DNA of 64,000 nucleotides. Source: Alphaproteobacteria bacterium (GTDB lineage: Bacteria > Pseudomonadota > Alphaproteobacteria > VGEJ01). The stretch covers positions 423,856 to 487,855 of the forward strand of contig CBDCMV010000003.1 in NCBI GenBank assembly GCA_965219135.1. Reading direction: 5' to 3'. Made by a program: the position numbers and the translations under genes. The notes under the pieces were generated by a model. That model worked only from the letters and a program-made list of their open reading frames with translations, did not search any database and was not told the DNA's origin. This document shows positions 1,660-17,319 of this stretch, one piece after another. How positions within the stretch are numbered: the first letter of the stretch is position 1; the number at the start of each line of letters is the position of its first letter.

Positions 1660-3216
1660 TTAGCGCTTGGACCAGTACTTCGCTTCGTAGAACTGGCTCG
1701 ACTGGAAGTAGGTCACCCGTTTGTTCACGACCGCCGTGAAGTGCTCGGCGAAGACGTGAATCTTCGGTTGATCCGCGTACCACAGACTCGATATCTCCCG
1801 GTACATCTCGCGCTGCTTCGCCGGATCGGTCTCCCGCCTCGCCTTGTGCAGGATTTCGTCGGCCGCGGGGATGCATACCTCGCTCAGGTTGAAGCCGACG
1901 TTGCACAGGAGGTCGTAGCCGTGGAAGTAGCCCGCCTCAATGACGCCGGGTCCATCGAGCCGGATGTACGCCGGCGCGGTGTGGCTCTCGAGCGCCTCGA
2001 TGTACTGGGCGTTCGCGACCTTGCGGATGACGAGGTTGATGCCGAGCTCTTGCCACGTGTTCTGGGCGATCGTGGCAATCTGCTCAGCGACGTCATCGCC
2101 CTCCTGTAAGTACAGGGGCACCTCCACCGGCGTTTCGAGCCCCGATTCGGCCATCAACTGCTTGGCCTTGGCCATATCGAAGGTACGCGCCGGGGTCAGC
2201 GCCCCATCGTATTCGGGAAACGCCGGCGCCAGGGGCCCACCAAAGAGATCGCCGAAGCCGAAGGCGACGTTATCGAGAATCTCCTCGTAGGGTAGGGCGT
2301 GGGCGACGGCCATGCGCACCTTGGGATTGTCCCACGGCGGCTTGGAGTTGGGCAGGCCGATCTGCTGTGATTGCGTCGAAACCGTCGAGACGATGCGGCA
2401 ACAAGGATCGTCCCTGAGGCTATCGATCGCGTTCTTGGCCATGCCGAGCGTGATGTCGGCGTCTCCCGTGCGGGCCTGCAACAACAGCGTCGCACTGGTG
2501 TTGATCCAGTTGTAGACCACCGTATCGGCACCCGGACGCCAGCCGTGGTAATCGGGGTTGGCCTTCAGAACGGCCCGACTGTTGGGCTCGTATTCGGCGA
2601 GCGTGAACGGGCCCGAGCCCGCGGTGTGGGACGTCATCCACTCGTTCGGTCCGGTCACGACCCCGCCATGCTGGTCGACGACGGACTTGTCGACCAAAGA
2701 GGCGGCGGTCTGCGCCCAGTCCTGTAACGCGTTCTTGTCGGGCAGGTTGAGCGTGATCACCAGCTTGGTCGGACTTACCGCCTCGATGGTCTTGATCAAC
2801 GGCGGGTCGTAGAAGCCGTCATAGATGAAATAAGAGCCACAGCCGCCCATGTTGATGGAGCGCTCGAAGGAAAACTTAGCCGCAGCCGCGTCCATCGGAT
2901 GACCGCTCGGGAAGGCATAGCCGGCGGGCAGGATGAACGTGTAGACGAGGCCGTCGTCACTAATGTTGATGGCCCGGGCAAAGTGCGGGACCATGCTGTC
3001 GGTATTGGTTTCGGTACTGACCCCGTCGGGGTTGACCTTGTCGGCGTACTTGGTCAGCCGGGTATAGAAGTTTCGGACGAAGCTGTTCTCCCACGGCCCG
3101 CACGTCCAGCCCGGATCGAGTGTGGCCGGCGCCGGCGCGACGTTGACAACGAGTGTTTCATTAGTCCTGCGCCAGCGCCGCGTTGCCGGCGAGGCCCGCC
3201 AAGGCAATAGCAGCAA
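1660..3216 (-). CDS. ABC transporter substrate-binding protein, family 5 (peptide/nickel/opine type); signal peptide is in another frame
   Basis: 518-aa ORF with family-5 SBP features (..LVVNVAPAPATLDPGW.., ..YNWINTSATLLLQARTGDADI..). A strong SD (AGGGAGGA) plus ATG at 3238 encodes MRKNLFSIAAIALAGLAGNAALAQD and then hits TAA at 3163-3161, one frame off from the mature part. Confidence 0.85.
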   Translation of the reverse strand: MLLLPWRASPATRRWRRTNETLVVNVAPAPATLDPGWTCGPWENSFVRNFYTRLTKYADKVNPDGVSTETNTDSMVPHFARAINISDDGLVYTFILPAGYAFPSGHPMDAAAAKFSFERSINMGGCGSYFIYDGFYDPPLIKTIEAVSPTKLVITLNLPDKNALQDWAQTAASLVDKSVVDQHGGVVTGPNEWMTSHTAGSGPFTLAEYEPNSRAVLKANPDYHGWRPGADTVVYNWINTSATLLLQARTGDADITLGMAKNAIDSLRDDPCCRIVSTVSTQSQQIGLPNSKPPWDNPKVRMAVAHALPYEEILDNVAFGFGDLFGGPLAPAFPEYDGALTPARTFDMAKAKQLMAESGLETPVEVPLYLQEGDDVAEQIATIAQNTWQELGINLVIRKVANAQYIEALESHTAPAYIRLDGPGVIEAGYFHGYDLLCNVGFNLSEVCIPAADEILHKARRETDPAKQREMYREISSLWYADQPKIHVFAEHFTAVVNKRVTYFQSSQFYEAKYWSKR

Positions 3217-4351: not shown

Positions 4352-5293
4352 TCAGTACGTGACGGCGGTGGTCCAGGCCGGATCGCGGTGTTTGTCCCAG
4401 TAGAGATCGGTGAGGCGCCGGGTCATCCGCCCGGCGCGGCCGTCGCCGATCGCGCTATCGTCGATCCGCGTTACCGGCATGATGCCGCCGGCGGTCGAGG
4501 TGATGAAGACCTCATCGGCGGCGCGCAACGCCTCGGCCGGGACCGTGCGAACGTTCGTCGCGATCCCCAGTTCGGCGCACAGTTCGAGCGCCGTCTGGCG
4601 GGTAATGCCGTGCAAGACCCCGACCGCCGGCGTCGCTACCTCGCCCTCGGCAACGATGAAGACGTTGAAGCCGGGTCCCTCGGTAATGTCACCGCGCGAA
4701 TCGACCAAAATGACGTTCTCACCGCCGCGGTCGTAGGCATCGAACAGGCCGTTCACGAAATCAAGCCAGTGGTAGTTCTTGATCGTGGAATCCACCGCCT
4801 CGGGCGGAATGCGCCGTACCGAGCTCACGATCAGGCGGAGCCCGCGCTCGCGTTGCTCGGCATCGGCGACCCAGCTGAAGGGCAGTGAGAAGGCGTAGAA
4901 CCGATTGATCGCCGCGCGCGGGTCGCGCGCGAACGTCGGCGAGAATCCGCGGGTGCAGACCATCTCGACATAGGCCTCGCGCAGGCCCGAGCGGCGCACG
5001 CACTCGGCCAGTATGGCGCCAAGCTCGTCCTCGTCTACCGGCACCGCGAGCCGCAGCCGTGCCGCCGAGTTCATGAACCGGGCGATGTGCCTGTCGAGGC
5101 GAAAGAAGCGGCCGTCCCACACGTGGACCACGTCGTAGGTGGCGTCCGAGCGCAGGAACCCCCAGTCCAAGACCGGTATCTTGGCTTCGGTAACCGGGCA
5201 GTAGGCGCCGTCGATGTAGGCGATTCCGGGCAGCGACCCCTCGTGGGGCGTCGCTGAATCTCGTGCGGCGTCGAGATCGGATACTTGGCTCAT
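4352..5293 (-). CDS. class IV (branched-chain / D-amino-acid) aminotransferase family protein
   Basis: ORF 4352..5449; probable ATG at 5293 (MSQVSDLD..). Has class IV aminotransferase-like blocks (..DATYDVVHVWDGRFFRLDRHIARF.., ..EGPGFNVF.., ..EVFITSTAGGIMPV..). Confidence 0.85.
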   Translation of the reverse strand: MSQVSDLDAARDSATPHEGSLPGIAYIDGAYCPVTEAKIPVLDWGFLRSDATYDVVHVWDGRFFRLDRHIARFMNSAARLRLAVPVDEDELGAILAECVRRSGLREAYVEMVCTRGFSPTFARDPRAAINRFYAFSLPFSWVADAEQRERGLRLIVSSVRRIPPEAVDSTIKNYHWLDFVNGLFDAYDRGGENVILVDSRGDITEGPGFNVFIVAEGEVATPAVGVLHGITRQTALELCAELGIATNVRTVPAEALRAADEVFITSTAGGIMPVTRIDDSAIGDGRAGRMTRRLTDLYWDKHRDPAWTTAVTY

Positions 5294-5427
5294 TGGGCTC
5301 TCCAGCTTCGTCTCAAGCGCGCCAGTGTAGCCCATTATCACGCGCGGCGACACGCGGGCGACGTTCCCAGGTACGCCTGAGCCGTGGTATCGTGGATCAA
5401 AACGCAAGCACTGAAAGGGGCGAAGAG

Positions 5428-7155
5428 ATGGCGGGTGAGCACGGCACATCCGTTCACGCGTACGTACCCGAACTCGTCGACCAGTTGCGCCGCGGCGTAA
5501 TCTCCCGGCGCCAGTTCATGCGGACCGCCAGCCTGCTCGGCGTCACCGCCGCAACCGCGGCGATGCTTGGCGGCTGCGGCGAGGGCGAAGAAGAGGAGGC
5601 CGAGGCGCCCGCGCCCGAGCCGGAGGCCGCCGCTGAACCCGAGGCGCCCAAGGGGCCCAATATTGGCGGCACCCTCAGGGTGTCGATGCGGGTGCACGAT
5701 CTTGCGGACCCGGCGACGTACGTTTCGCCCGAGCAGGGGAATATCGCCCGCCACATGGTCGAGCCTTTGGTGCGGTTGAACAAAGACAACATCGCCGAGC
5801 CCTACCTCGCCGAGCGCTGGGAGGTGTCCGAAGACCTCAAGACCTGGACCCTGCACCTGCGCAAGGATGCCAAGTGGTCGAACTTCGACCAGGAAGTATT
5901 CAATGCCGATGACGTCGTCTTCAACTTCAAACGCTGGCTGGATCCCGCCCGGGGCTCGTCGAACGCGGTCCGTTTCGCCGCGCTGAACGCAAGCGGGGTC
6001 GAGAAGGTGGATGACTTCACCGTTCGCCTTCATCTCGACCGACCCGATCTGAGCGTGCCCGAGAGCTTGGCCGAGTACCCGGCCCTCATCCTTCACCGCA
6101 AGTTCGACGAGGAAGGCGGTGATTTGCCGGCCAACCCGATCGGCACCGGCCCATACAAGATCAGAGAGTATCGGCAGGGCGAGCACACCCTTTTGGAGCG
6201 GACGCGTGATCCGGCGTTCGGTTTCAAGGCCGAGTGGTGGGGCGGCGGCGGCTACCTCGACCGAATTCGATACTTCGATCATGGCGCCGATCCGGCCGCC
6301 TCGGTCGGCGCCTTGGTGGCGGACGAAGTCGATTTCAGCCACCACGTGGACGCGGCTCAAGCCGCGGTCGCGGCGGAATCGCCCGAGCTCGCGCTCTACG
6401 AGGCGGCCTCGGCGCACACCGGCGTCATGCGCATGAAGGTGACCGAGGCGCCCTTCGACCAGGCGGCGGTGCGCCGGGCGGTGCAGGCGTGCGTGGATCG
6501 CGACGCGCTGGTGATGGCGGTGAACGGCGGGTTCGGCGCCGCGGGCGAGGACCACCACGTGGCGCCCGTCCATCCCGACTACGCGCCACTTCCGAAACTC
6601 GCCCAAGACCACGAGCGCACACGGGCCCAGTTGGCCGAAGCGGGCCATGCCGGCGGCTTGGCGATCAGTATCGACTGCGCTGCCGAGCCGGTCTGGCACC
6701 AGGCGGCCTGCAACGCGCTGGCGGAGATGTGCGAACCCGCGGGCATCACCCTAACCGTCAATGTCGTCCCGCCCGATAGCTACGCCGAGCGGTGGCTGAC
6801 GACGCCGTTCGGGCTGACGGCGTGGGACCACCGCGGGCTTGGCATCCAAGTGCTAACCCACGCCTATCGCACCGGCGCGCCATGGAACGAGTCCTCGTAC
6901 GCCAACGAGGCATTCGATTCGCTATTGGACGAGGCTGGCGCGATCCTCGACCCCGTGGCGCGGCGCGGGGCGATGGAGAAGGTCGAAAAGACCCTCCAAG
7001 GCGACGCCGTGATGGTGCAGGCGCCGTGGCGGCCGGCGTTGTCCGCGGCCAACAAGCGGGTTCAGGACCTCTACGCCCACGCCGCGTCCGAGCAACACTT
7101 CAACTTTGTCTGGTTGACCGAATCGGTGCGCGGCAGACCCACCGCGGACACCTAG
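5428..7155 (+). CDS. ABC transporter substrate-binding protein, family 5, Tat-type signal
   Basis: In-frame ATG at 5428 (MAGEHG..). Twin-arginine-like SRRQFMRTASLLGVTAATAAMLGGC, then a family-5 SBP body. Confidence 0.85.
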   Translation: MAGEHGTSVHAYVPELVDQLRRGVISRRQFMRTASLLGVTAATAAMLGGCGEGEEEEAEAPAPEPEAAAEPEAPKGPNIGGTLRVSMRVHDLADPATYVSPEQGNIARHMVEPLVRLNKDNIAEPYLAERWEVSEDLKTWTLHLRKDAKWSNFDQEVFNADDVVFNFKRWLDPARGSSNAVRFAALNASGVEKVDDFTVRLHLDRPDLSVPESLAEYPALILHRKFDEEGGDLPANPIGTGPYKIREYRQGEHTLLERTRDPAFGFKAEWWGGGGYLDRIRYFDHGADPAASVGALVADEVDFSHHVDAAQAAVAAESPELALYEAASAHTGVMRMKVTEAPFDQAAVRRAVQACVDRDALVMAVNGGFGAAGEDHHVAPVHPDYAPLPKLAQDHERTRAQLAEAGHAGGLAISIDCAAEPVWHQAACNALAEMCEPAGITLTVNVVPPDSYAERWLTTPFGLTAWDHRGLGIQVLTHAYRTGAPWNESSYANEAFDSLLDEAGAILDPVARRGAMEKVEKTLQGDAVMVQAPWRPALSAANKRVQDLYAHAASEQHFNFVWLTESVRGRPTADT

Positions 7156-10143: not shown

Positions 10144-11055
10144 ATGGCCCCGTCGGCCACAACCGGACCTGAGCCGCGAAACGTCGGCGCAATATCGCGC
10201 GTGCTGACCGCCATGGCGATGTTCGCGGCCGGCGATGCCACGCTAAAAGAGCTGGTGGCGACCTACGCGGTCGGCCAGGTGCTGTTCCTTTCCGGACTCA
10301 TCTCGCTCGCGGTCCTGGTGCCGATCATGTGGCGGGCAGGCGAGCTCGGCGAGATTCGCACCAAGCGGCCGATCGGCAATCTCCTGCGCGTCGCCGCCGG
10401 CCTCGTTGGCCAGATCCTGTTGGCGCTTGCGCTCAAACGCCTTCCCCTCGCCGACACGACGGCGATCATGTTCTCGGTCCCGCTCTTCGTCACCGCGTTC
10501 TCGGCACCACTGCTGGGTGAGCGCGTCGGATGGCGGCGCTGGAGCGCAGTGATCGTTGGTTTCGGAGGGGTGCTGCTGATCACGCGCCCGGGCATCGGCG
10601 CGCTCGATCCGGCGATGGTGCTCGCCATCGGCGCCTCGCTCGGGTTCGCGCTCATGATCACCGCGACCCGCTGGCTCAGCCGCACCGAGCGCAGCCTGCC
10701 GCTTTTGCTTTACATGATCACCGGCTATACCGTGTACGGCGCGGTGCTGACGCCGTTTCAATGGGTCACGCCGGCGGCTGCCGATTTCGCCTTGTTCGCC
10801 GCGCTCGGCGTATTCTACACGCTCGGTTACTACATGGAGGTCCGGGCCCTGAGCCTTGCCCCGGTGGGGGTGATCACGCCTTTCATGTATACGGCGCTGC
10901 TGTGGGCGGTGCTGTTCGGATGGTTGATCTGGGGCGAGTTGCCGGCAGCCAACGTTTGGGCCGGCGCCGCGCTCATGGTCGCGAGCGGCCTATACATCCT
11001 CTATCGCGAGATCAAAGCGCACACCGCGGCTGTGAGTGGGCCCGTCCGGCTCTAG
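10144..11055 (+). CDS. DMT (EamA-like) family transporter
   Basis: 303-aa hydrophobic ORF with a duplicated EamA-like architecture. Confidence 0.8.
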   Translation: MAPSATTGPEPRNVGAISRVLTAMAMFAAGDATLKELVATYAVGQVLFLSGLISLAVLVPIMWRAGELGEIRTKRPIGNLLRVAAGLVGQILLALALKRLPLADTTAIMFSVPLFVTAFSAPLLGERVGWRRWSAVIVGFGGVLLITRPGIGALDPAMVLAIGASLGFALMITATRWLSRTERSLPLLLYMITGYTVYGAVLTPFQWVTPAAADFALFAALGVFYTLGYYMEVRALSLAPVGVITPFMYTALLWAVLFGWLIWGELPAANVWAGAALMVASGLYILYREIKAHTAAVSGPVRL

Positions 11056-11076
11056 CGCGACCGCACTCGCGCAGCC

Positions 11077-11175
11077 CTAACCGTACTCCGGTGCGGTGTC
11101 GAAGTAGCGGACGCCGACGGCATAAGCGGCGTCCAGCGCCTCGCGCGCGGTGCTCGAGGGCTGGCGGCACGGTGC
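11077..11175 (-). pseudogene. aldo/keto reductase N-terminal remnant
   Basis: Own translation: ..PSSTAREALDAAYAVGVRYFDTAPEYG* (stop 11079-11077). This is the AKR signature ..A.d.G...FDTA..YG with nothing before or after it. It is wedged between the PhyH stop (11176) and the DMT stop (11055). Confidence 0.45.
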
Positions 11176-11630
11176 TCACCGAGCGCCGACGTAGCGGCCG
11201 TTCTTGAGGATCGGATCGGCGAACCAGCGCACCGCCGATCCGTCCTCGGTGTAGAGCGGCTCGGCGACGTACTGGCTGATGAAGGCGCGGCGCATGGCGC
11301 TCGAGCGATTCGGGCCCGAGCGGTGAAACATGGTGCTGGAGAACACCGCCACCCCGCCCGCGGGTAAGCGTACCGGTATTCCCGGATCGTCACCGAAGTA
11401 TCCAACTTTGTCGTTGAGTCCGGGCCGGATCACGTGCTCGACGCGCTCGCGCGTCCCGGCGCGCGAATAGGAGAGGACGTAGATGGTGCCGTTTTCCTCG
11501 CTCGCCGCGTCGATCGCGCACCAGACAGTCAGGTACGGCCGGTGCGAGTACGACACGTAGCCCGAATCTTGGTGCCAAGAGAAGGCACCGCCGCGTTCGG
11601 GGTATTTGATCACGAACTGGTTGTTGTGGA
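11176..11630 (-). pseudogene. phytanoyl-CoA dioxygenase (PhyH) family gene, 3' part, separated from its 5' part by a group II intron
   Basis: ORF 11176..11613 (..KYPERGGAFSWHQDSGYV..FHRSGPN..). The frame continues upstream to 11630 (..HNNQFV..). Confidence 0.8.
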
Positions 11631-13557
11631 GTGCGCCAGGCTAACTGGTGCCAGTGCAGCCGGTGAAAGTCCGGCGGGAAGGAGAAGGCTAGCCACCACT
11701 TCCACCCCGAGTCATGGGCCGTTATCCGCGAGGATGGGGGTCAAGCGTTGACAGGGGCGCGTGCGGGCAGGGCTATTGAGCACCGAAAGAGACTCATCCG
11801 GGATGCCGAGGCTTTTCCATAGGCCGAAGGTAGCATCTGGTCCACCGATATGGCGACTGGGGGGTCAGAATCCCGCGGTGTCTAAGAACCCATGCACGTA
11901 CGTACGCACTGCACCGGGACCTGGGAGGTCTCCATGCCATCCCGCTGTCGTGGCGGGGTCGCAGAGGAAAGGAGGAATCCGTAACCGATGATGCACGGCA
12001 TGGAGAAGTCAGACTCGGGAATAGTAGCTGTGAAGTCGGCGAACAAAGGGATGAGAGTCCCGGCGGAGTCGATGGAGCGAAGGACCGAGCCCAAGGGGAT
12101 TCTGGAAGGCCAAAGCACGCGCCGGACACAGGACCGGGAAAGCGTGACACAGGCGGCTGACCGGATACGGCAATTTGTACAACGGGAGCCACGGGAGCGT
12201 CTGACGACGCTTCTCCACCATGTCACGGTCGAAGCGCTGCGCTGGGCGTTCTTCGCGTTGAAGAAGGACGCGGCGGCAGGTGCGGATGGCATGACGTGGG
12301 GAATGTACGAGGGAAGGTTGGAAGGCCGGTTGGCCGACCTGCACGACCGCGTGCACTCGGGAGCGTACCGGGCGACGCCATCACGGCGGGTGAATATTCC
12401 GAAACCGGATGGCGGCACACGACCGCTCGGCGTCGCGGCCATAGAGGACAAGATAGTCCAGAAGGCTGTGGCGGAGATAATCCTGACGCCGATTTACGAG
12501 GCGGAGTTCCTGGGGTCCAGCTATGGGTTCCGGCCCGGGCGTGGGGCGCATGATGCGCTCGACGCGCTCGCGGCTGGGATCAAACGGCGCAAGATCAACT
12601 GGGTGGTGGACTGTGACATCCGTGCATTCTTCGACAACGTGTCGAGGAACTGGCTGGTCCGGTTTCTCGAACACCGCATCGCGGACAAGCGGGTTATCAG
12701 GCTCATCATCAAGTGGTTGAACGCTGGCGTCATGGAAGATGGAGAGTGGCGGGACAACCTGCGGGGAACGCCGCAGGCTCGGTGGCTTCACCGGTCTTGG
12801 CGAACATCTACCTGCACTATGTCCTCGACTTGTGGTTCCAGAAGAAGTGGCGCAGCCACGAGGTCGAAGGCGACGCAATCATCGTGCGGTACGCCGATGA
12901 TTTCGTGGTGGGTTTTCAGCACAAGCGGGACGCGGAGCGCTTCCTGAACGCCGTAAAGGAACGGTTCGAAAGCTTCGAACTGGACATACACCCCGACAAG
13001 ACCCGGCTCATCGAGTTCGGGCGGTTTGCCCTGAAAGACCGTCGGCAACGAGGGCAGGGCAGACCGGAGACCTTCGACTTTCTGGGCTTCACGCACTACT
13101 GCGCGAAAGACAGACGAGGGAGATTCCAGTTGGGGCGCAAACCGGTCGCGAGGCGCATGAGCCGGACACTGAAGCGGATTAAGGAGGCGCTACGCAGGCG
13201 GATGCACTGCAAGTCCAAGGAGACGGCAAGATGGCTGGGGAAGGTGCTCGACGGATGGCTCAACTACTACGCAGTCCCGAACAGCTACCGATACCTCGAC
13301 CGTTTTACTATCCGCCTGAAGCGACTGTGGTTGCGCACGCTACGCCTACGGTCGCAGAAGGACCGCACGACATGGGCCGATATCACGGCACTGACCAAGA
13401 CCCATTGGCCCAAGCTGGAAATCCGACACCCGTGGCCGGACCAACGATTTGCCGTCAGCGCTATGCGGGGCGGAACCCAAGGGAGGAGCCGGATGCCCTA
13501 GCGGGCCTGTCCGGATCTGTGCGGGGGGCGCTGGGCAACCAGCGACCCTACCGCGAT
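11631..13557 (+). mobile_element. bacterial group II intron (En-less RT/maturase type), plus-strand orientation
   Basis: 5' GTGCGCC at 11631. RT/maturase ORF in domain IV. Domain V-like hairpin at 13486..13517 (GAGCCGGAUGCCC-UAGC-GGGC-CU-GUCCGGAUC). Domain VI at 13518..13557 with a bulged A at 13550, 8 nt from the 3' end ..CGAU. Confidence 0.9.
11988..13501 (+). pseudogene. group II intron reverse transcriptase/maturase, split by a 1-nt frameshift
   Basis: ORFs 11988..12947 and 12713..13501. RT blocks RRVNIPKPDGGTRPLGV, YGFRPGRGAHDA and DIRAFFDNV, then ..LRGTPQ|GSVASPVLANIYL.., YADDFVV, and the maturase block LDGWLNYYAV. The frame changes at 12774-12778. Confidence 0.88.
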
Positions 13558-13822
13558 AGTACGCGCTCGCGCCCAACGTTGCGGCGCAGACCTCGGCCAT
13601 CTCGCGGCTCATGATCACGTCGCGGACGGCGGCCTGGCGCTCGTGCAAATTCTGAAGAAAATAACGGTCGTACTTGTGGCTGATGGTGTTGGCTTGGAAG
13701 GTGGACCCGTCGGCGGCCTTCCGGGTGACGATCTGATCGTCGACGAAGTGCGCGGCGCCCTCGCTGGATACCACCTCCGAGCCGTTGAACTCTTCGATCA
13801 GGGCGTCGCAGGCCGCCCCCAA
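13558..13822 (-). pseudogene. PhyH family gene, 5' part
   Basis: ORF 13346..13822 codes sensibly only down to ..AEVCAATLGASAY at 13559; below that it reads intron antisense. Confidence 0.75.
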
Positions 13823-13971
13823 CGCACCGACCTGGGTCCGCGACGGAGAATATCGAAGGCCCCCGAGCCGGACAAGCCTGGCGCCCCGTCGTTCCGCGGC
13901 GTGGTTGCTGCACCTTGAAATGGCACGTAAGCTTCCCCCGTGATGTCCGGATCCACCGCGGATTCCGCGAG

Positions 13972-16900
13972 ATGAAGTGCGCCGGCTGCGGTTGCACCGT
14001 GGCGGAGGATTTCAGCTTTTGCCCCAAGTGTGGCGAGAGCCTGTCGGCCGATTGCCCGGGCTGCGGCTTCACCTGTCCGCCGGAGTTCGCGTTTTGCCCG
14101 AAATACGGCACCTCGCTTGCGGCCGAGCCATCGCCGTCGCCGGCGCGCTCGCCACCGGCTTTCGCCGGTCGATCCGAGCCCACGACGCCCACGGGGGCGG
14201 ATCTGGCTGCCGCCGAATCCGACCGCCGTCCGGTCACCGTCTTGTTTGCCGACCTGTGCGGGTTTACGGCGCTGAGCGAGCGCCTCGATCCGGAAGACAT
14301 CCGGGCCCTTCAGAACGATTTGTTCGCCGAATTGACGGCCGCGGTGACCGACGTCGATGGGTTTGTCGAGAAGTACGTCGGCGACGCGTTGCTGGCGCTG
14401 TTCGGCGCCCCGGTGGCGCATGAAGACGACCCCGAGCGGGCGCTACGCGCGGCGCTGTCGATGTGCCGGCGCACCGCCGACCTCAGCAGCCATTGGCAAG
14501 ACCGCATCCGCGAGCCGCTGGCCCTTCACATCGGGGTCAACACGGGCCCCGTCGTGGCCGGTACCGTCGGTGCGGGCGCGGCCAACGCTTACTCGGTGAC
14601 CGGGGACACCGTGAACACGGCGGCGCGCCTGCAGTCTGCGGCGGCACCGGGTCAGATCCTGGTCGGCCCGGTCACCCATCGCCTGACCCGGAGCGTGTTC
14701 CAGTTCGAGGCGATGGGCGATCTCAGGCTCAAGGGCAAGGTCGAGGCCCTGTCCGCGCACCAGTTGCTGGGCGAGCTGGCGGGGGCCGGCCCCGCCCGCG
14801 GTCTCGAATCGCTGGGATTTACCGCACCGCTAATCGCCCGCACGGATGAGCTCGGCCGGATGGTGGCGGCGGCCGAGCACATGCGCGGCGGACAGGCCCA
14901 GGTGCTGCGCTTGGTGGGCGAGGCCGGCATCGGCAAGTCGCGGTTGATCGAGGCGTTTCTCGACTCACTCGCCGGGTCCGCCGCCGAGGGTACGATCGAC
15001 GTTCGCCGCGCCGGGTGTTCGGCGCTCGGCCACGAAACATACGGTCTGTTGGCCCATCTCCTTCGCGATGCCTATGGGCTTCGCGCCGACGCCGTGCCTG
15101 GCGAGGTCGAAGAAAAGCTCACCTCGGGGCTTGCGGCGGACGGCGCCGGTGCGGACGAGATTGCCCGCACGCTGCCGCCGCTCGCGTTCGTGCTCGGCAA
15201 CGACGCCGGCGCCGGTGGCCTCGAGCATCTTCAGCCTGAACAGCTGAGGCGCCAGATTCTCCACTCCGTACGCACCCTGGCCGAACGGCGGCTCGCGGAG
15301 CGCGGGCTAGCGCTGGTGGTGGAAGACCTGCAGTGGGCGGATGCCGCGTCGATCGAGGTCCTGCGATTTCTGGCCGATCGCCTGCACGACAAATCATTCA
15401 TGCTGGTCTTGACGCACCGCCCCGAATTCGACGCGGGGCCGCTGGCTGGCGGACACGCGACTCAAACCGCGATGCGACTTGCGCCGCTGTCGAAGGCGGA
15501 GAGTGATCAGATGGTGGCGGCCCTGTTGGGCGGTTCCGAGGATGGCCCTCCCGCCGCCGTGCGCGAGCGAATCATCGGTCGCGGCGGCGGCAGCCAACTC
15601 GTGCAGAGCGCGGCGGTCTTGGGTCCGACGTTCGAGGCGCGCCTCCTGCGCAGCGTCGCCCGCGCGCCGCAGGCCGTCGAGCAGGAGCTTGAGCTTCTGT
15701 GCGAGGCCGATATCGTCGAGGAAGTTGCGATGGAGACCGGTGCCGATCAGTGCTACCGCTTCACGCAGACGCTGGTACAGGAAGTCGTTTATCAGAATCT
15801 TCTGGTGCAGAGCCGTTCGGAGCAACATGGCGCGGCTGGCCGCGCCCTCCAGGCGATGCACGGTGGTGCGGTCCGTGGCCAGGGCAGCGAAGACGCTCTC
15901 GAGCCCGGCGATGTACTCCTCTACAACGTCCCCTACGGCGCCGGTTCGCATGCGCAGGACGCGGCGTTGGTTATGCCGGTGTTCTACGACGGCGAACTCA
16001 TCGGTTACTCGGCGATCAAGGCGCACTGGCTCGACATCGGCGCCAAGGATCCGTACTGCACCGATACCGTGGATGTTTTCCAGGAGGGGACCGTCTATCC
16101 CGGGATCAAGCTCTATAGCCGCGGCCAGCCGGTCGCCGATATCCACCGCGCCGTGCTCGCCAACTCACGGCTCCCGAAAACCCTTGCTGGCGACCTCAGC
16201 GCCCAGGTCACCGGCGTCCGCGCTGGCGCCGAAGGGCTAGTGCGCGTCGTCGAGCGGTTCGGCCTTGCGGCGTTCCGGCGCTCGGTCGCGCGCATGTACG
16301 ATCATGGCGAGGCCGTGGTGCGGCGCTACTTCGAGCGCATTCCCGACGGCCGCTACACCGCACGCGGCCAGCTCGATAGCGATGGCCTTGGCGATACGCC
16401 GATCCCCTTCGAGCTGGCCGTCGATGTGGAGGGTTCGACCGTCCGCATCGATTATTTCGACGCGCCCGACGCCGTGGCGGGGCCGATGAACTGCCCGCTC
16501 CCCCGCACGGTCTCGGCCAGCCGAATTGCGATCAGCATGCTTGCTGGCGGCTCCGAGGCACCGACCGAGGGGCACTTTCGGCCCATCGAAGTCCTCACGC
16601 GGCGCGGTTCGCTGTTCCACGCGATCTCGCCGATGCCGTGCTTCCTTTGCGGTCGCATCGCCATGCAGGCGATCGACGTGATCTATCAGGCGCTCGCGGC
16701 GGTCATGCCCGCGGCGGTGCCGGCATGGAGCGCATCCGACCTCTGCTCGCTGGTGTGGTGGGGCGCGCGCGAGGGATCGGGCGAGGTGTGGGCGGATGGC
16801 TCGCCGCACCCCGTGGGCCAAGGCGCTCACATCGCGGGAGACGGCGGCACGCTCATGCACATCGGCCAATCCGCCACCCGCATCTCCCCGGTCGAGGTGT

Positions 16901-17319
16901 GGGAGGCCAAGAACCCGTGGCTGCTCGAACGTGCCGAGCTCGCGCCGGATTCGTGTGGCGCGGGCACGCACCGGGGTGGTCTCGGCATCGATTATCATTT
17001 CCACATGCTCGAGGGCGCGTACCTGTCCGCGGCGCTCGAACGAACCAAGGTACCGGCATGGGGACTGGGCGGCGGCAGCGAGGGCCGCGCCAACGGGCTC
17101 CTCGTGCGCGCGCCGGACGGCACGCGAACGCCGCTTCGCGGCAAATCGACCCGCTATCGCCTGGCCAAGGGGACGACGCTCGAGCTCTGCTGCGGTGGCG
17201 GCGGCGGGTACGGTCCCCCGGCGGCGCGACCGCGCCACGCCGTCGAGGCCGATCTCCGTGACGGCTATATCACCGAGGACCACATCCGCCGCCACTATGG
17301 CGAAGCGCTGGCGGCCTGA
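13972..17319 (+). CDS. chimeric ORF: double zinc ribbon + class III adenylate/guanylate cyclase + P-loop NTPase, fused in frame to a 5'-truncated hydantoinase B/oxoprolinase
   Basis: ORF 13915..17319; probable ATG at 13972 (MKCAGCGC..). Contains RRPVTVLFADLCGFT..GDTVNTAARL, GEAGIGKSRL and LVVEDLQWAD. From about 15870 it switches to LEPGDVLLYNVPYGAGSH..AQVTGVRAGA..SPHPVGQGAH..THRGGLG. Confidence 0.8.
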   Translation: MKCAGCGCTVAEDFSFCPKCGESLSADCPGCGFTCPPEFAFCPKYGTSLAAEPSPSPARSPPAFAGRSEPTTPTGADLAAAESDRRPVTVLFADLCGFTALSERLDPEDIRALQNDLFAELTAAVTDVDGFVEKYVGDALLALFGAPVAHEDDPERALRAALSMCRRTADLSSHWQDRIREPLALHIGVNTGPVVAGTVGAGAANAYSVTGDTVNTAARLQSAAAPGQILVGPVTHRLTRSVFQFEAMGDLRLKGKVEALSAHQLLGELAGAGPARGLESLGFTAPLIARTDELGRMVAAAEHMRGGQAQVLRLVGEAGIGKSRLIEAFLDSLAGSAAEGTIDVRRAGCSALGHETYGLLAHLLRDAYGLRADAVPGEVEEKLTSGLAADGAGADEIARTLPPLAFVLGNDAGAGGLEHLQPEQLRRQILHSVRTLAERRLAERGLALVVEDLQWADAASIEVLRFLADRLHDKSFMLVLTHRPEFDAGPLAGGHATQTAMRLAPLSKAESDQMVAALLGGSEDGPPAAVRERIIGRGGGSQLVQSAAVLGPTFEARLLRSVARAPQAVEQELELLCEADIVEEVAMETGADQCYRFTQTLVQEVVYQNLLVQSRSEQHGAAGRALQAMHGGAVRGQGSEDALEPGDVLLYNVPYGAGSHAQDAALVMPVFYDGELIGYSAIKAHWLDIGAKDPYCTDTVDVFQEGTVYPGIKLYSRGQPVADIHRAVLANSRLPKTLAGDLSAQVTGVRAGAEGLVRVVERFGLAAFRRSVARMYDHGEAVVRRYFERIPDGRYTARGQLDSDGLGDTPIPFELAVDVEGSTVRIDYFDAPDAVAGPMNCPLPRTVSASRIAISMLAGGSEAPTEGHFRPIEVLTRRGSLFHAISPMPCFLCGRIAMQAIDVIYQALAAVMPAAVPAWSASDLCSLVWWGAREGSGEVWADGSPHPVGQGAHIAGDGGTLMHIGQSATRISPVEVWEAKNPWLLERAELAPDSCGAGTHRGGLGIDYHFHMLEGAYLSAALERTKVPAWGLGGGSEGRANGLLVRAPDGTRTPLRGKSTRYRLAKGTTLELCCGGGGGYGPPAARPRHAVEADLRDGYITEDHIRRHYGEALAA

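Follow-up and report, generated by a model that had tools for sequence, protein, structure and literature searches.

The window analysed here is a stretch of 64,000 nucleotides (C3:423856-487855) of an alphaproteobacterial genome of 4.8 Mb in three contigs, and between positions 11176 and 13822 it carries a gene of the PhyH dioxygenase family on the minus strand that is interrupted by a group II intron on the plus strand (Table 1). The intron begins with GTGCG (11631-11635) and ends with ..CGCGAT, the final AT being nucleotides 13556-13557, in agreement with the 5' GUGYG and 3' AY ends by which mobile group II introns are recognized. When nucleotide 13558 is joined to 11630 on the minus strand the reading becomes ..EVCAATLGASAY-F-HNNQFVIKYPERGGAFSWHQD.., i.e. 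GASAY-F-, with the phenylalanine codon split as T↓TC (the arrow marks the insertion point here and below), and the joined product is 239 aa long, scores 81.1 bits against Pfam PhyH (PF05721) and has H108, D110 and H191 in invariant columns. The initial annotation of this DNA had taken both intron boundaries to be exact from the restored frame, and the homologs bear this out. Two paralogs from the same genome and ten database homologs read ..AYFHFEEFVVKYP..FSWHQD through the junction, the paralogs with ..EAYFHFEEFVVKFP..FSWHQD.., and both groups share AYFH.E.FVVK..FSWHQD over the join point; the ten database homologs are 49-59% identical to the joined product (alignment A1) and collinear over the junction. 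There is no target-site duplication, as expected of reverse splicing. The PhyH open reading frame (ORF) now consists of an 89-aa N-terminal piece that continues into junk and a 145-aa C-terminal piece. As the same annotation had pointed out, the intron is antisense to PhyH, and since the PhyH transcript carries the reverse complement of the ribozyme it cannot be spliced; the ORF is permanently split.

The element was also correctly recognized at that stage as a group II intron, which is supported by the Rfam model RF02005, by covariation in domains V and VI and by the RVT_1 and GIIM domains of its protein. The domain I core is matched over the full length of RF02005 with a score far above the gathering cut-off of 49 bits. 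Domains V and VI are formed by the last 80 nt of the intron. Their covariation was followed in an alignment of 17 related introns with 16 distinct rows, in which 98.7% of the cells are paired, a value that falls to 33-48% if the partners are shifted by 1-3 columns, and nine pairs show compensatory changes. Domain V has an AGC triad with a G.A opposition and a 2-nt bulge. The triad G faces an A instead of a U (GGAGCC...GGATCT) in 17 of the 17 aligned family members and in an enterobacterial plasmid intron, so the opposition characterizes the family and does not reflect damage to the window copy. The loop of domain V holds the TAG stop codon of the intron-encoded protein (IEP; 13499-13501), with the hairpin end reading GCCC-TAGC-GGGC. 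Without its ORF the intron measures about 415 nt. It is of IIB type, having a second exon-binding site (EBS2) and an EBS3 in an internal loop of domain I that pairs with position +1 of the 3' exon, and unlike IIC introns it is not positioned 3' of a terminator hairpin. By eye, no convincing complement in the alignment was seen for the alpha-alpha' partner of the second Id3 hairpin loop.

The IEP, a reverse transcriptase (RT)/maturase, is encoded in domain IV and is found in two frames, with positions 1-121 of the RVT_1 profile in one ORF piece and positions 121-204 together with GIIM in the other. The frames are separated by the loss of one A at 12774, which turns CCG-CAA-GGC-TCG into CCGCAGGCTCG; the frameshift falls just upstream of the ..SPVLANIYL block and shifts the YADD half of the RT into another frame. 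Proteins of this family are about 500-505 aa long and contain no domains besides RT and X, and the window IEP (about 505 aa) has a long N-terminal extension. An endonuclease domain (HNH) is absent, as RVT_1 and GIIM are the only Pfam domains of the window IEP and of more than 100 homologs about 500 aa in length, and the ORF ends within domain V some 90 aa beyond the end of the GIIM match. Endonuclease-less IEPs are known from classes C, D, E and F (PMC4424553).

A BLAST search of the genome with the intron gives three further copies. Copy B (C3:1078265-1077473) comprises intron nucleotides 1-793 at 99.9% identity, where the end of an insertion sequence (IS) terminates it, copy C (C3:286221-287030) comprises nucleotides 1-143 and 302-627 at 99.3 and 100% identity, and copy D (C2:47292-53001), at 94.6% identity, has two interruptions; with its two inserts removed in silico, copy D has an uninterrupted IEP frame of 505 aa. 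Each of the three is inserted antisense to an IS66-family transposase gene. Their 5' exon reads ..GG(G/A)TCGAT(A/G)TGGA↓, the 3' exon of copy D is ↓AGTAGACC, and the opposite strand encodes ..WLWTSVSPDAVYFHIDPSRSAEVA.., a part of the transposase with ..VYFHIDPSRS... The assignment to IS66 comes from an uninterrupted transposase copy with a DDE_Tnp_IS66 score of 189.3 bits, in which the VYFHIDP target codons are inside the Pfam domain. The canonical site is thus ..GG(G/A)TCGAT(A/G)TGGA↓AGTA(A/G)AC, with antisense codons V-Y-F-H-I-D-P. Because the introns of B and C are near-identical and their IS66 flanks differ, the two are independent homing events and not one IS copy multiplied with its passenger. 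The same site is used by relatives elsewhere. A search of 185,579 species genomes gave 79 loci, where the closest relatives, in other alphaproteobacterial metagenome-assembled genomes, have IEPs 93-97% identical to that of the window. Ten of these (L009-L013, L015, L016, L039, L046, L062) are at ..GGGTCGATATGGA↓AGTA(A/G)AC, i.e. the IS66 site, two of them with ↓AAGAGAC as 3' exon, and L014 (IEP 95%) has the same 5' exon as the IS66 site.

The exon-binding sites were placed in an alignment of 23 introns (first 380 nt of each) whose lineages differ in their exons, and pairing was tested in 18 distinct lineages by shuffling the exons among the introns 20,000 times. The EBS1 loop (hairpin CCGAGG-N-GGCCGAAGG) varies along with the last six bases of the 5' exon. 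On average 5.67 of its 6 positions pair with the intron's own exon, versus 3.03 after shuffling, and 0 of 20,000 shuffles are as high; EBS3 is paired in 17 of the 18 lineages, again with 0 of 20,000 shuffles as high. The EBS1 of the window intron, TCCATA, is fully complementary to the canonical TATGGA and pairs with TGTGGA at the cost of one G.U. Its EBS2 pairs fully with the canonical intron-binding site 2 (IBS2), and in copy D the EBS2 is GATTC opposite GGATC, a compensatory change; EBS2 is nevertheless the weakest assignment of the three. Two other candidates for EBS elements had been put forward earlier, TCCAC at about 11840 and CCAGT at about 11650. Neither is retained, as both are in conserved stems that do not depend on the target, the former in a hairpin stem conserved across lineages with unrelated targets and the latter in the conserved 5' hairpin GGCTAACTGG..CCAGT, and the covariation gives the three positions of Table 1 in their place.

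At the PhyH gene the insertion site reads, on the intron strand, ..CTGGTTGT-TGTGGA↓AGTACGCG, and it shares with the IS66 site only TGTGGA↓AGTA and part of IBS2. The common motif is due to the fact that the PhyH and IS66 genes both encode Tyr-Phe-His by TAC-TTC-CAC. Pairing is found in 6 of 6 positions with EBS1 (one G.U), 1 of 1 with EBS3, and 4 of 5 with EBS2, two of these being wobbles (IBS2 TGGTT). The genome has ten unoccupied T(A/G)TGGAAGTA sites, eight of which are canonical IS66 sites (GGATCGAT[AG]TGGAAGTAGAC; C3 positions 1809172, 1964633, 1988426, 2083028, 2086637, 2358517, 3639033 and 3701710), where at least two of the IS66 elements have full-length transposase ORFs of 837 aa. The two empty TGTGGAAGTA sites outside IS66 are in an IlvD-like gene and a hydantoinase-B-like gene, and in the IlvD-like gene, the one of the two that was checked, the IBS2 match is poorer. 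The two nearest PhyH paralogs have AAGTGGA↓AGTAG, with a mismatch at -6 and two of five EBS2 pairs, and are empty. Among the sites examined, the window PhyH gene is therefore the best mimic of the homing site outside IS66, and this fits ectopic retrohoming and not a second cognate site. The proposal that other copies in the genome should define the homing site has thus been fruitful, with the antisense IS66 transposase site as the answer, and the PhyH site itself is not the homing site but an ectopic look-alike of it.

Taken together we consider it most probable, with a probability of roughly 0.87, that an IIB-type intron without endonuclease was reverse-spliced opposite a PhyH paralog at a look-alike of its IS66 site, and that this copy has since died. 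The DNA strand opposite the dioxygenase gene would have been the substrate for reverse splicing, the A-Y-F-H codons offering the EBS1 helix, the EBS3-IBS3 pair and four of five EBS2 pairs, which would have been enough for a rare ectopic insertion. Introns without an endonuclease cannot cut the second DNA strand. By analogy with other such introns, retrohoming would have been primed by a nascent strand in the transiently single-stranded DNA of a replication fork, and RmInt1 and other endonuclease-less introns are known to reverse-splice into single-stranded fork DNA with the nascent strand as primer (PMC5894124, PMC7923331). In the cumulative GC skew, which is weak, the window copy and copy C (plus strand, 0.29-0.44 Mb) and copy B (minus strand, 1.08 Mb) are co-oriented with the inferred fork movement, an orientation that is suggestive of insertion into the lagging-strand template. 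The insertion is recent, since the window copy is 99.3-100% identical to the damaged IS66-borne copies B and C, and we infer that the loss of the RT base came after it. The window copy is now immobile, because its RT has lost one base and there are 0 intact copies of the family in the genome (B and C are truncated, D is interrupted). The eight cognate sites that are still empty agree with an element that has stopped moving. The locus is then an ordinary ectopic retrohoming event in a decaying genome, with no new mechanism.

Several points weigh against this account. The data searched hold no intronless allele, and the empty site is deduced from paralogs at 55-60% identity; the search for such an allele in related strains, which the initial annotation had proposed, came out empty, the best match being 57% identical (from the same genus) among 40 related genomes and 60% identical in a database of 5.8 billion proteins. 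The register of EBS2-IBS2 shifts by 1-2 nt among the lineages, and the pairing is not evident in some of them, e.g. L030, so a contribution of EBS2 to the choice of the PhyH site is plausible though unproven. The orientation of copy D relative to replication is ambiguous. The 1-nt deletion at 12774 could have arisen in the assembly, although no long homopolymer is found there.

It is a serious possibility, if somewhat short of an even chance, that the intron entered a PhyH gene already turned into a pseudogene by local rearrangements that had removed its 5' end, and that no working gene was knocked out. About 30 conserved N-terminal residues (QFREEGYFLLP..) are missing from the window PhyH, where full-length homologs have 266-285 aa and the alignment begins at about homolog residue 30. 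Similarity to the homologs begins at about 13831-13840 (the blast match from 13831), the only in-frame start is the TTG at 13822, inside the conserved region, and the missing N-terminus was not found in any frame of the whole window. Close paralogs exist, two of them with internal stops, so that the family is redundant and already in decay. On the other hand the remaining 717 nt of PhyH are free of stops and frameshifts, and all 57 columns that are invariant in an 11-sequence alignment are kept, including the HxD...H motif, which speaks for selection up to recent times; the truncation may have preceded or followed the insertion. Of the 'true knockout' claimed earlier, the disruption of the ORF consequently stands, and the knockout of a working gene is less certain because of the missing N-terminus.

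That the intron copy is still alive, the frameshift being an assembly error or the protein being supplied in trans, and that it splices from antisense transcripts and moves, is unlikely. Its ribozyme parts do look intact, namely GTGCG, EBS1-3, domain V, and domain VI with the branch A, and its identity of 99.3-100% to B and C means that it moved recently. Against this, the deletion lies in an AA dinucleotide, not a long homopolymer, and five of five relatives have AA. Nor does the genome hold any other intact IEP of the family, the next-nearest RT genes being only 37% identical to that of the window, and group II maturases are generally specific to their own intron, which weighs against a protein supplied in trans. 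The eight empty canonical sites also speak against an intron that still moves. Far less probable still is an assembly artefact, with a repeat misplaced between the PhyH halves, or the acquisition of the intron from an IS66-borne copy through homologous recombination. An intron repeated at four loci could mislead an assembler, but the flanks here are the halves of one gene, joined at the terminal nucleotides of the intron without a base lost or gained, no IS66 sequence is found beside it, and EBS1 and EBS3 match the site as they should at a target of reverse splicing.

Table 1. Features of the interrupted PhyH gene and its intron (window positions; EBS, exon-binding site; IBS, intron-binding site)
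Feature	Position	Strand	Basis
PhyH 3' part, with HxD...H iron-binding residues and stop codon	11176..11630	-	PhyH, 70.5 bits
5' exon elements: IBS2-like TGGTT 11618-11622, spacer GT, IBS1 TGTGGA 11625-11630	11618..11630	+	
Full-length group II intron, IIB-type, 1,927 nt	11631..13557	+	Restored PhyH frame; alignment with 79 related loci
Domain I core, Rfam RF02005 (group-II-D1D4-6)	11666..11890	+	Full model length, 168.4 bits, E = 7.7e-50
EBS2 GACTC	11791..11795	+	5/5 pairing with canonical IBS2 GGGTC at -13..-9
EBS1 TCCATA, loop of hairpin CCGAGGCTTT-TCCATA-GGCCGAAGG	11816..11821	+	Covariation, permutation test
EBS3, T in GTCTAAGAA (GTC-T-AAGAA), pairs with first 3' exon base	11883	+	Covariation
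IEP, reverse transcriptase/maturase in domain IV, two frames 11988-12947 and 12713-13501	11988..13501	+	RVT_1, GIIM
1-nt deletion, CCGCAAGGC to CCGCAGGC	12774	+	AA in all five closest relatives
Domain V	13485..13518	+	13 pairs, 4 with compensatory changes, 100% paired
Domain VI, bulged branch-point A at 13550	13520..13555	+	15 pairs, 5 with compensatory changes
IBS3 (A), first base of 3' exon	13558	+	
PhyH 5' part, TTG 13822 to split Phe codon	13558..13822	-	Homolog alignments

Beside the PhyH gene, on the minus strand at about 11070-11175, the same frame reads ..AREALDAAYAVGVRYFDTAPEYG* directly past the PhyH stop, which resembles the N-terminus of an aldo/keto reductase left as an orphan, another gene scrap. 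On the other side a long ORF on the plus strand (13915-17319) joins a zinc-ribbon/cyclase/NTPase front to a hydantoinase B back. A scan of 11000-14200 for promoters and terminators gave none above the shuffled expectation.

Among known introns the closest well-studied analogue is RmInt1 of Sinorhizobium meliloti, which is likewise of IIB type, with an RT/maturase lacking the D/En (DNA-binding/endonuclease) domains, targeting by EBS1-3, and a cognate site within the transposase gene of an insertion sequence (ISRm2011-2). The RmInt1 site is reportedly in the sense orientation of the transposase gene, whereas the window lineage targets the antisense strand of the IS66-family tnpC. The IEP of RmInt1 belongs to class D, while that of the window, with its long N-terminal extension, may be E-like or F-like; its best homolog on a S. 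meliloti plasmid is 58.6% identical and is not equated with RmInt1. For RmInt1, occasional ectopic insertions mainly into the lagging-strand template and an extinction phase with mutated and fragmented copies have been described (PMC5894124, PMC1802570). The closest annotated relative reached is an intron with an ltrA annotation that is common on plasmids of Klebsiella pneumoniae and E. coli (e.g. NZ_MW598243.1, L091), which scores 186.6 bits with RF02005 and has an IEP 53.5% identical over 97% of the length, a domain V with GGAGCC...GGGATCT (2934-2970) where the triad G is opposite an A, and the same domain VI. It differs in its target, ..ATATGTACA↓GTGCG...GCGAC↓ATG, which is apparently intergenic, and in a 5-nt domain V loop, and the copy examined has an intact ORF. 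IIC-attC introns also insert at their cognate site opposite to the surrounding transcription and behave as pure retroelements (PMC7923331, PMC3001079), but they are IIC ribozymes without EBS2 that recognize a DNA stem-loop and short IBS1/IBS3 motifs, whereas the window intron is of IIB type with EBS2 and a 6-bp EBS1. The group IIE/IIF introns (Nagy et al. 2013, PMC3753933) resemble it as small IIB-like ribozymes with an endonuclease-less IEP and an extra terminal Id3 hairpin beside the EBS1 hairpin, but the 5-nt loop of domain V by which they are diagnosed is not apparent in the window copy (GCCC-TAGC-GGGC).

Seven sister lineages were sampled, one (L029) by its exon motif and six by Pfam on the joined flanks, and all are sense-oriented in their host genes, five of which are transposase genes. 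L029 is in an IS66 tnpC at ..HADETGW↓RVQ.., and the hosts of the six others are IS5/IS1182-like, IS4-like and IS256-like transposases, an MmeI-type enzyme and an MFS transporter. With its antisense target, the window sub-lineage is therefore the exception within its family. A literature search on group II introns antisense in IS66 gave no relevant paper. We regard it as doubtful that the window lineage has adopted the antisense IS66 strand as its cognate site in a way that makes it a permanent IS66 inactivator and possibly a source of antisense RNA. If it were so, the intron would never be spliced from host mRNA, and spill-over to Y-F-H look-alikes would add to gene loss in IS-rich genomes of the symbiont type.

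The single locus matters little, being one more pseudogene in a visibly decaying genome, and it is already known that bacterial group II introns are retroelements that sometimes insert off their cognate site. The value of the case is that the cognate site, eight empty cognate sites, an ectopic site and two near-miss sites are all found in one genome, with pairing rules for EBS1, EBS2 and EBS3 from covariation, so that the reason why this PhyH paralog was hit and its sisters were spared is readable from the sequence. Abundant and multi-copy in long-read metagenome-assembled genomes from several phyla, the family could be of interest for intron ecology and for builders of targetrons, the mildly unusual feature being the one sub-lineage that homes antisense into IS66 transposase genes.

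The other copies in the genome have been damaged by further elements. An IS3-family element truncates copy B at nucleotide 793 (C3:1077373-1077472), and an IS3-family scrap of about 340 nt is inside copy C (C3:286364-286705); the end of the element reads TGGCCTGCCCCCGATTAGTGG.. and its OrfA reads MSRKRYTPEQIISMLREAEV.., and IS activity has thus been destroying intron copies. Copy D (L088, G000:C2:45500-54500) has been invaded by a different type of group II intron, with features at 2157-2339, 3031-3213 and 4565-5875, namely two matches to RF02003 at 49.8 bits each, indicating a partial duplication, and an uninterrupted ORF for a 436-aa IEP. Copy D is therefore an intron nested in an intron within an IS66 element. 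While the window copy and copies B and C start with GTGCG, copy D (C2:47292) starts with GAGCG instead of the GUGYG consensus, as do many lineages of the family that are multi-copy and apparently mobile (L009-L015, L018, L029-L047, L054, L059-L061 and L066-L070).

Loci L009-L087 show family IEPs at 68-97% identity and high copy numbers in metagenome-assembled genomes, with more than 25 loci in one genome, and carry the labels Alphaproteobacteria, Binatia, Vicinamibacterales, Entotheonella, Longimicrobiales, Rariloculaceae and Chloroflexi, a distribution that suggests horizontal spread in a shared habitat. In several copies from related genomes (L032, L035, L036, L045 and L075, at about 2574-2604) the place of the 5' exon is taken by the terminal 30 nt of a further copy, ..CCCTACCGCGAT↓GAGCGCCAGG, so that the introns are in head-to-tail tandem, which could come from recombination, from homing beside a resident copy or from the assembly. 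One sister lineage (L020-L025; IBS1 G[CA]T[TC]AC, IBS2 GATC-like) is found at six different sites in one genome, and the two sites for which Pfam was consulted are in ordinary genes, one for an MmeI-type restriction-modification enzyme and one for an MFS transporter, with the intron in the sense orientation in each; this lineage looks like one with relaxed target specificity.

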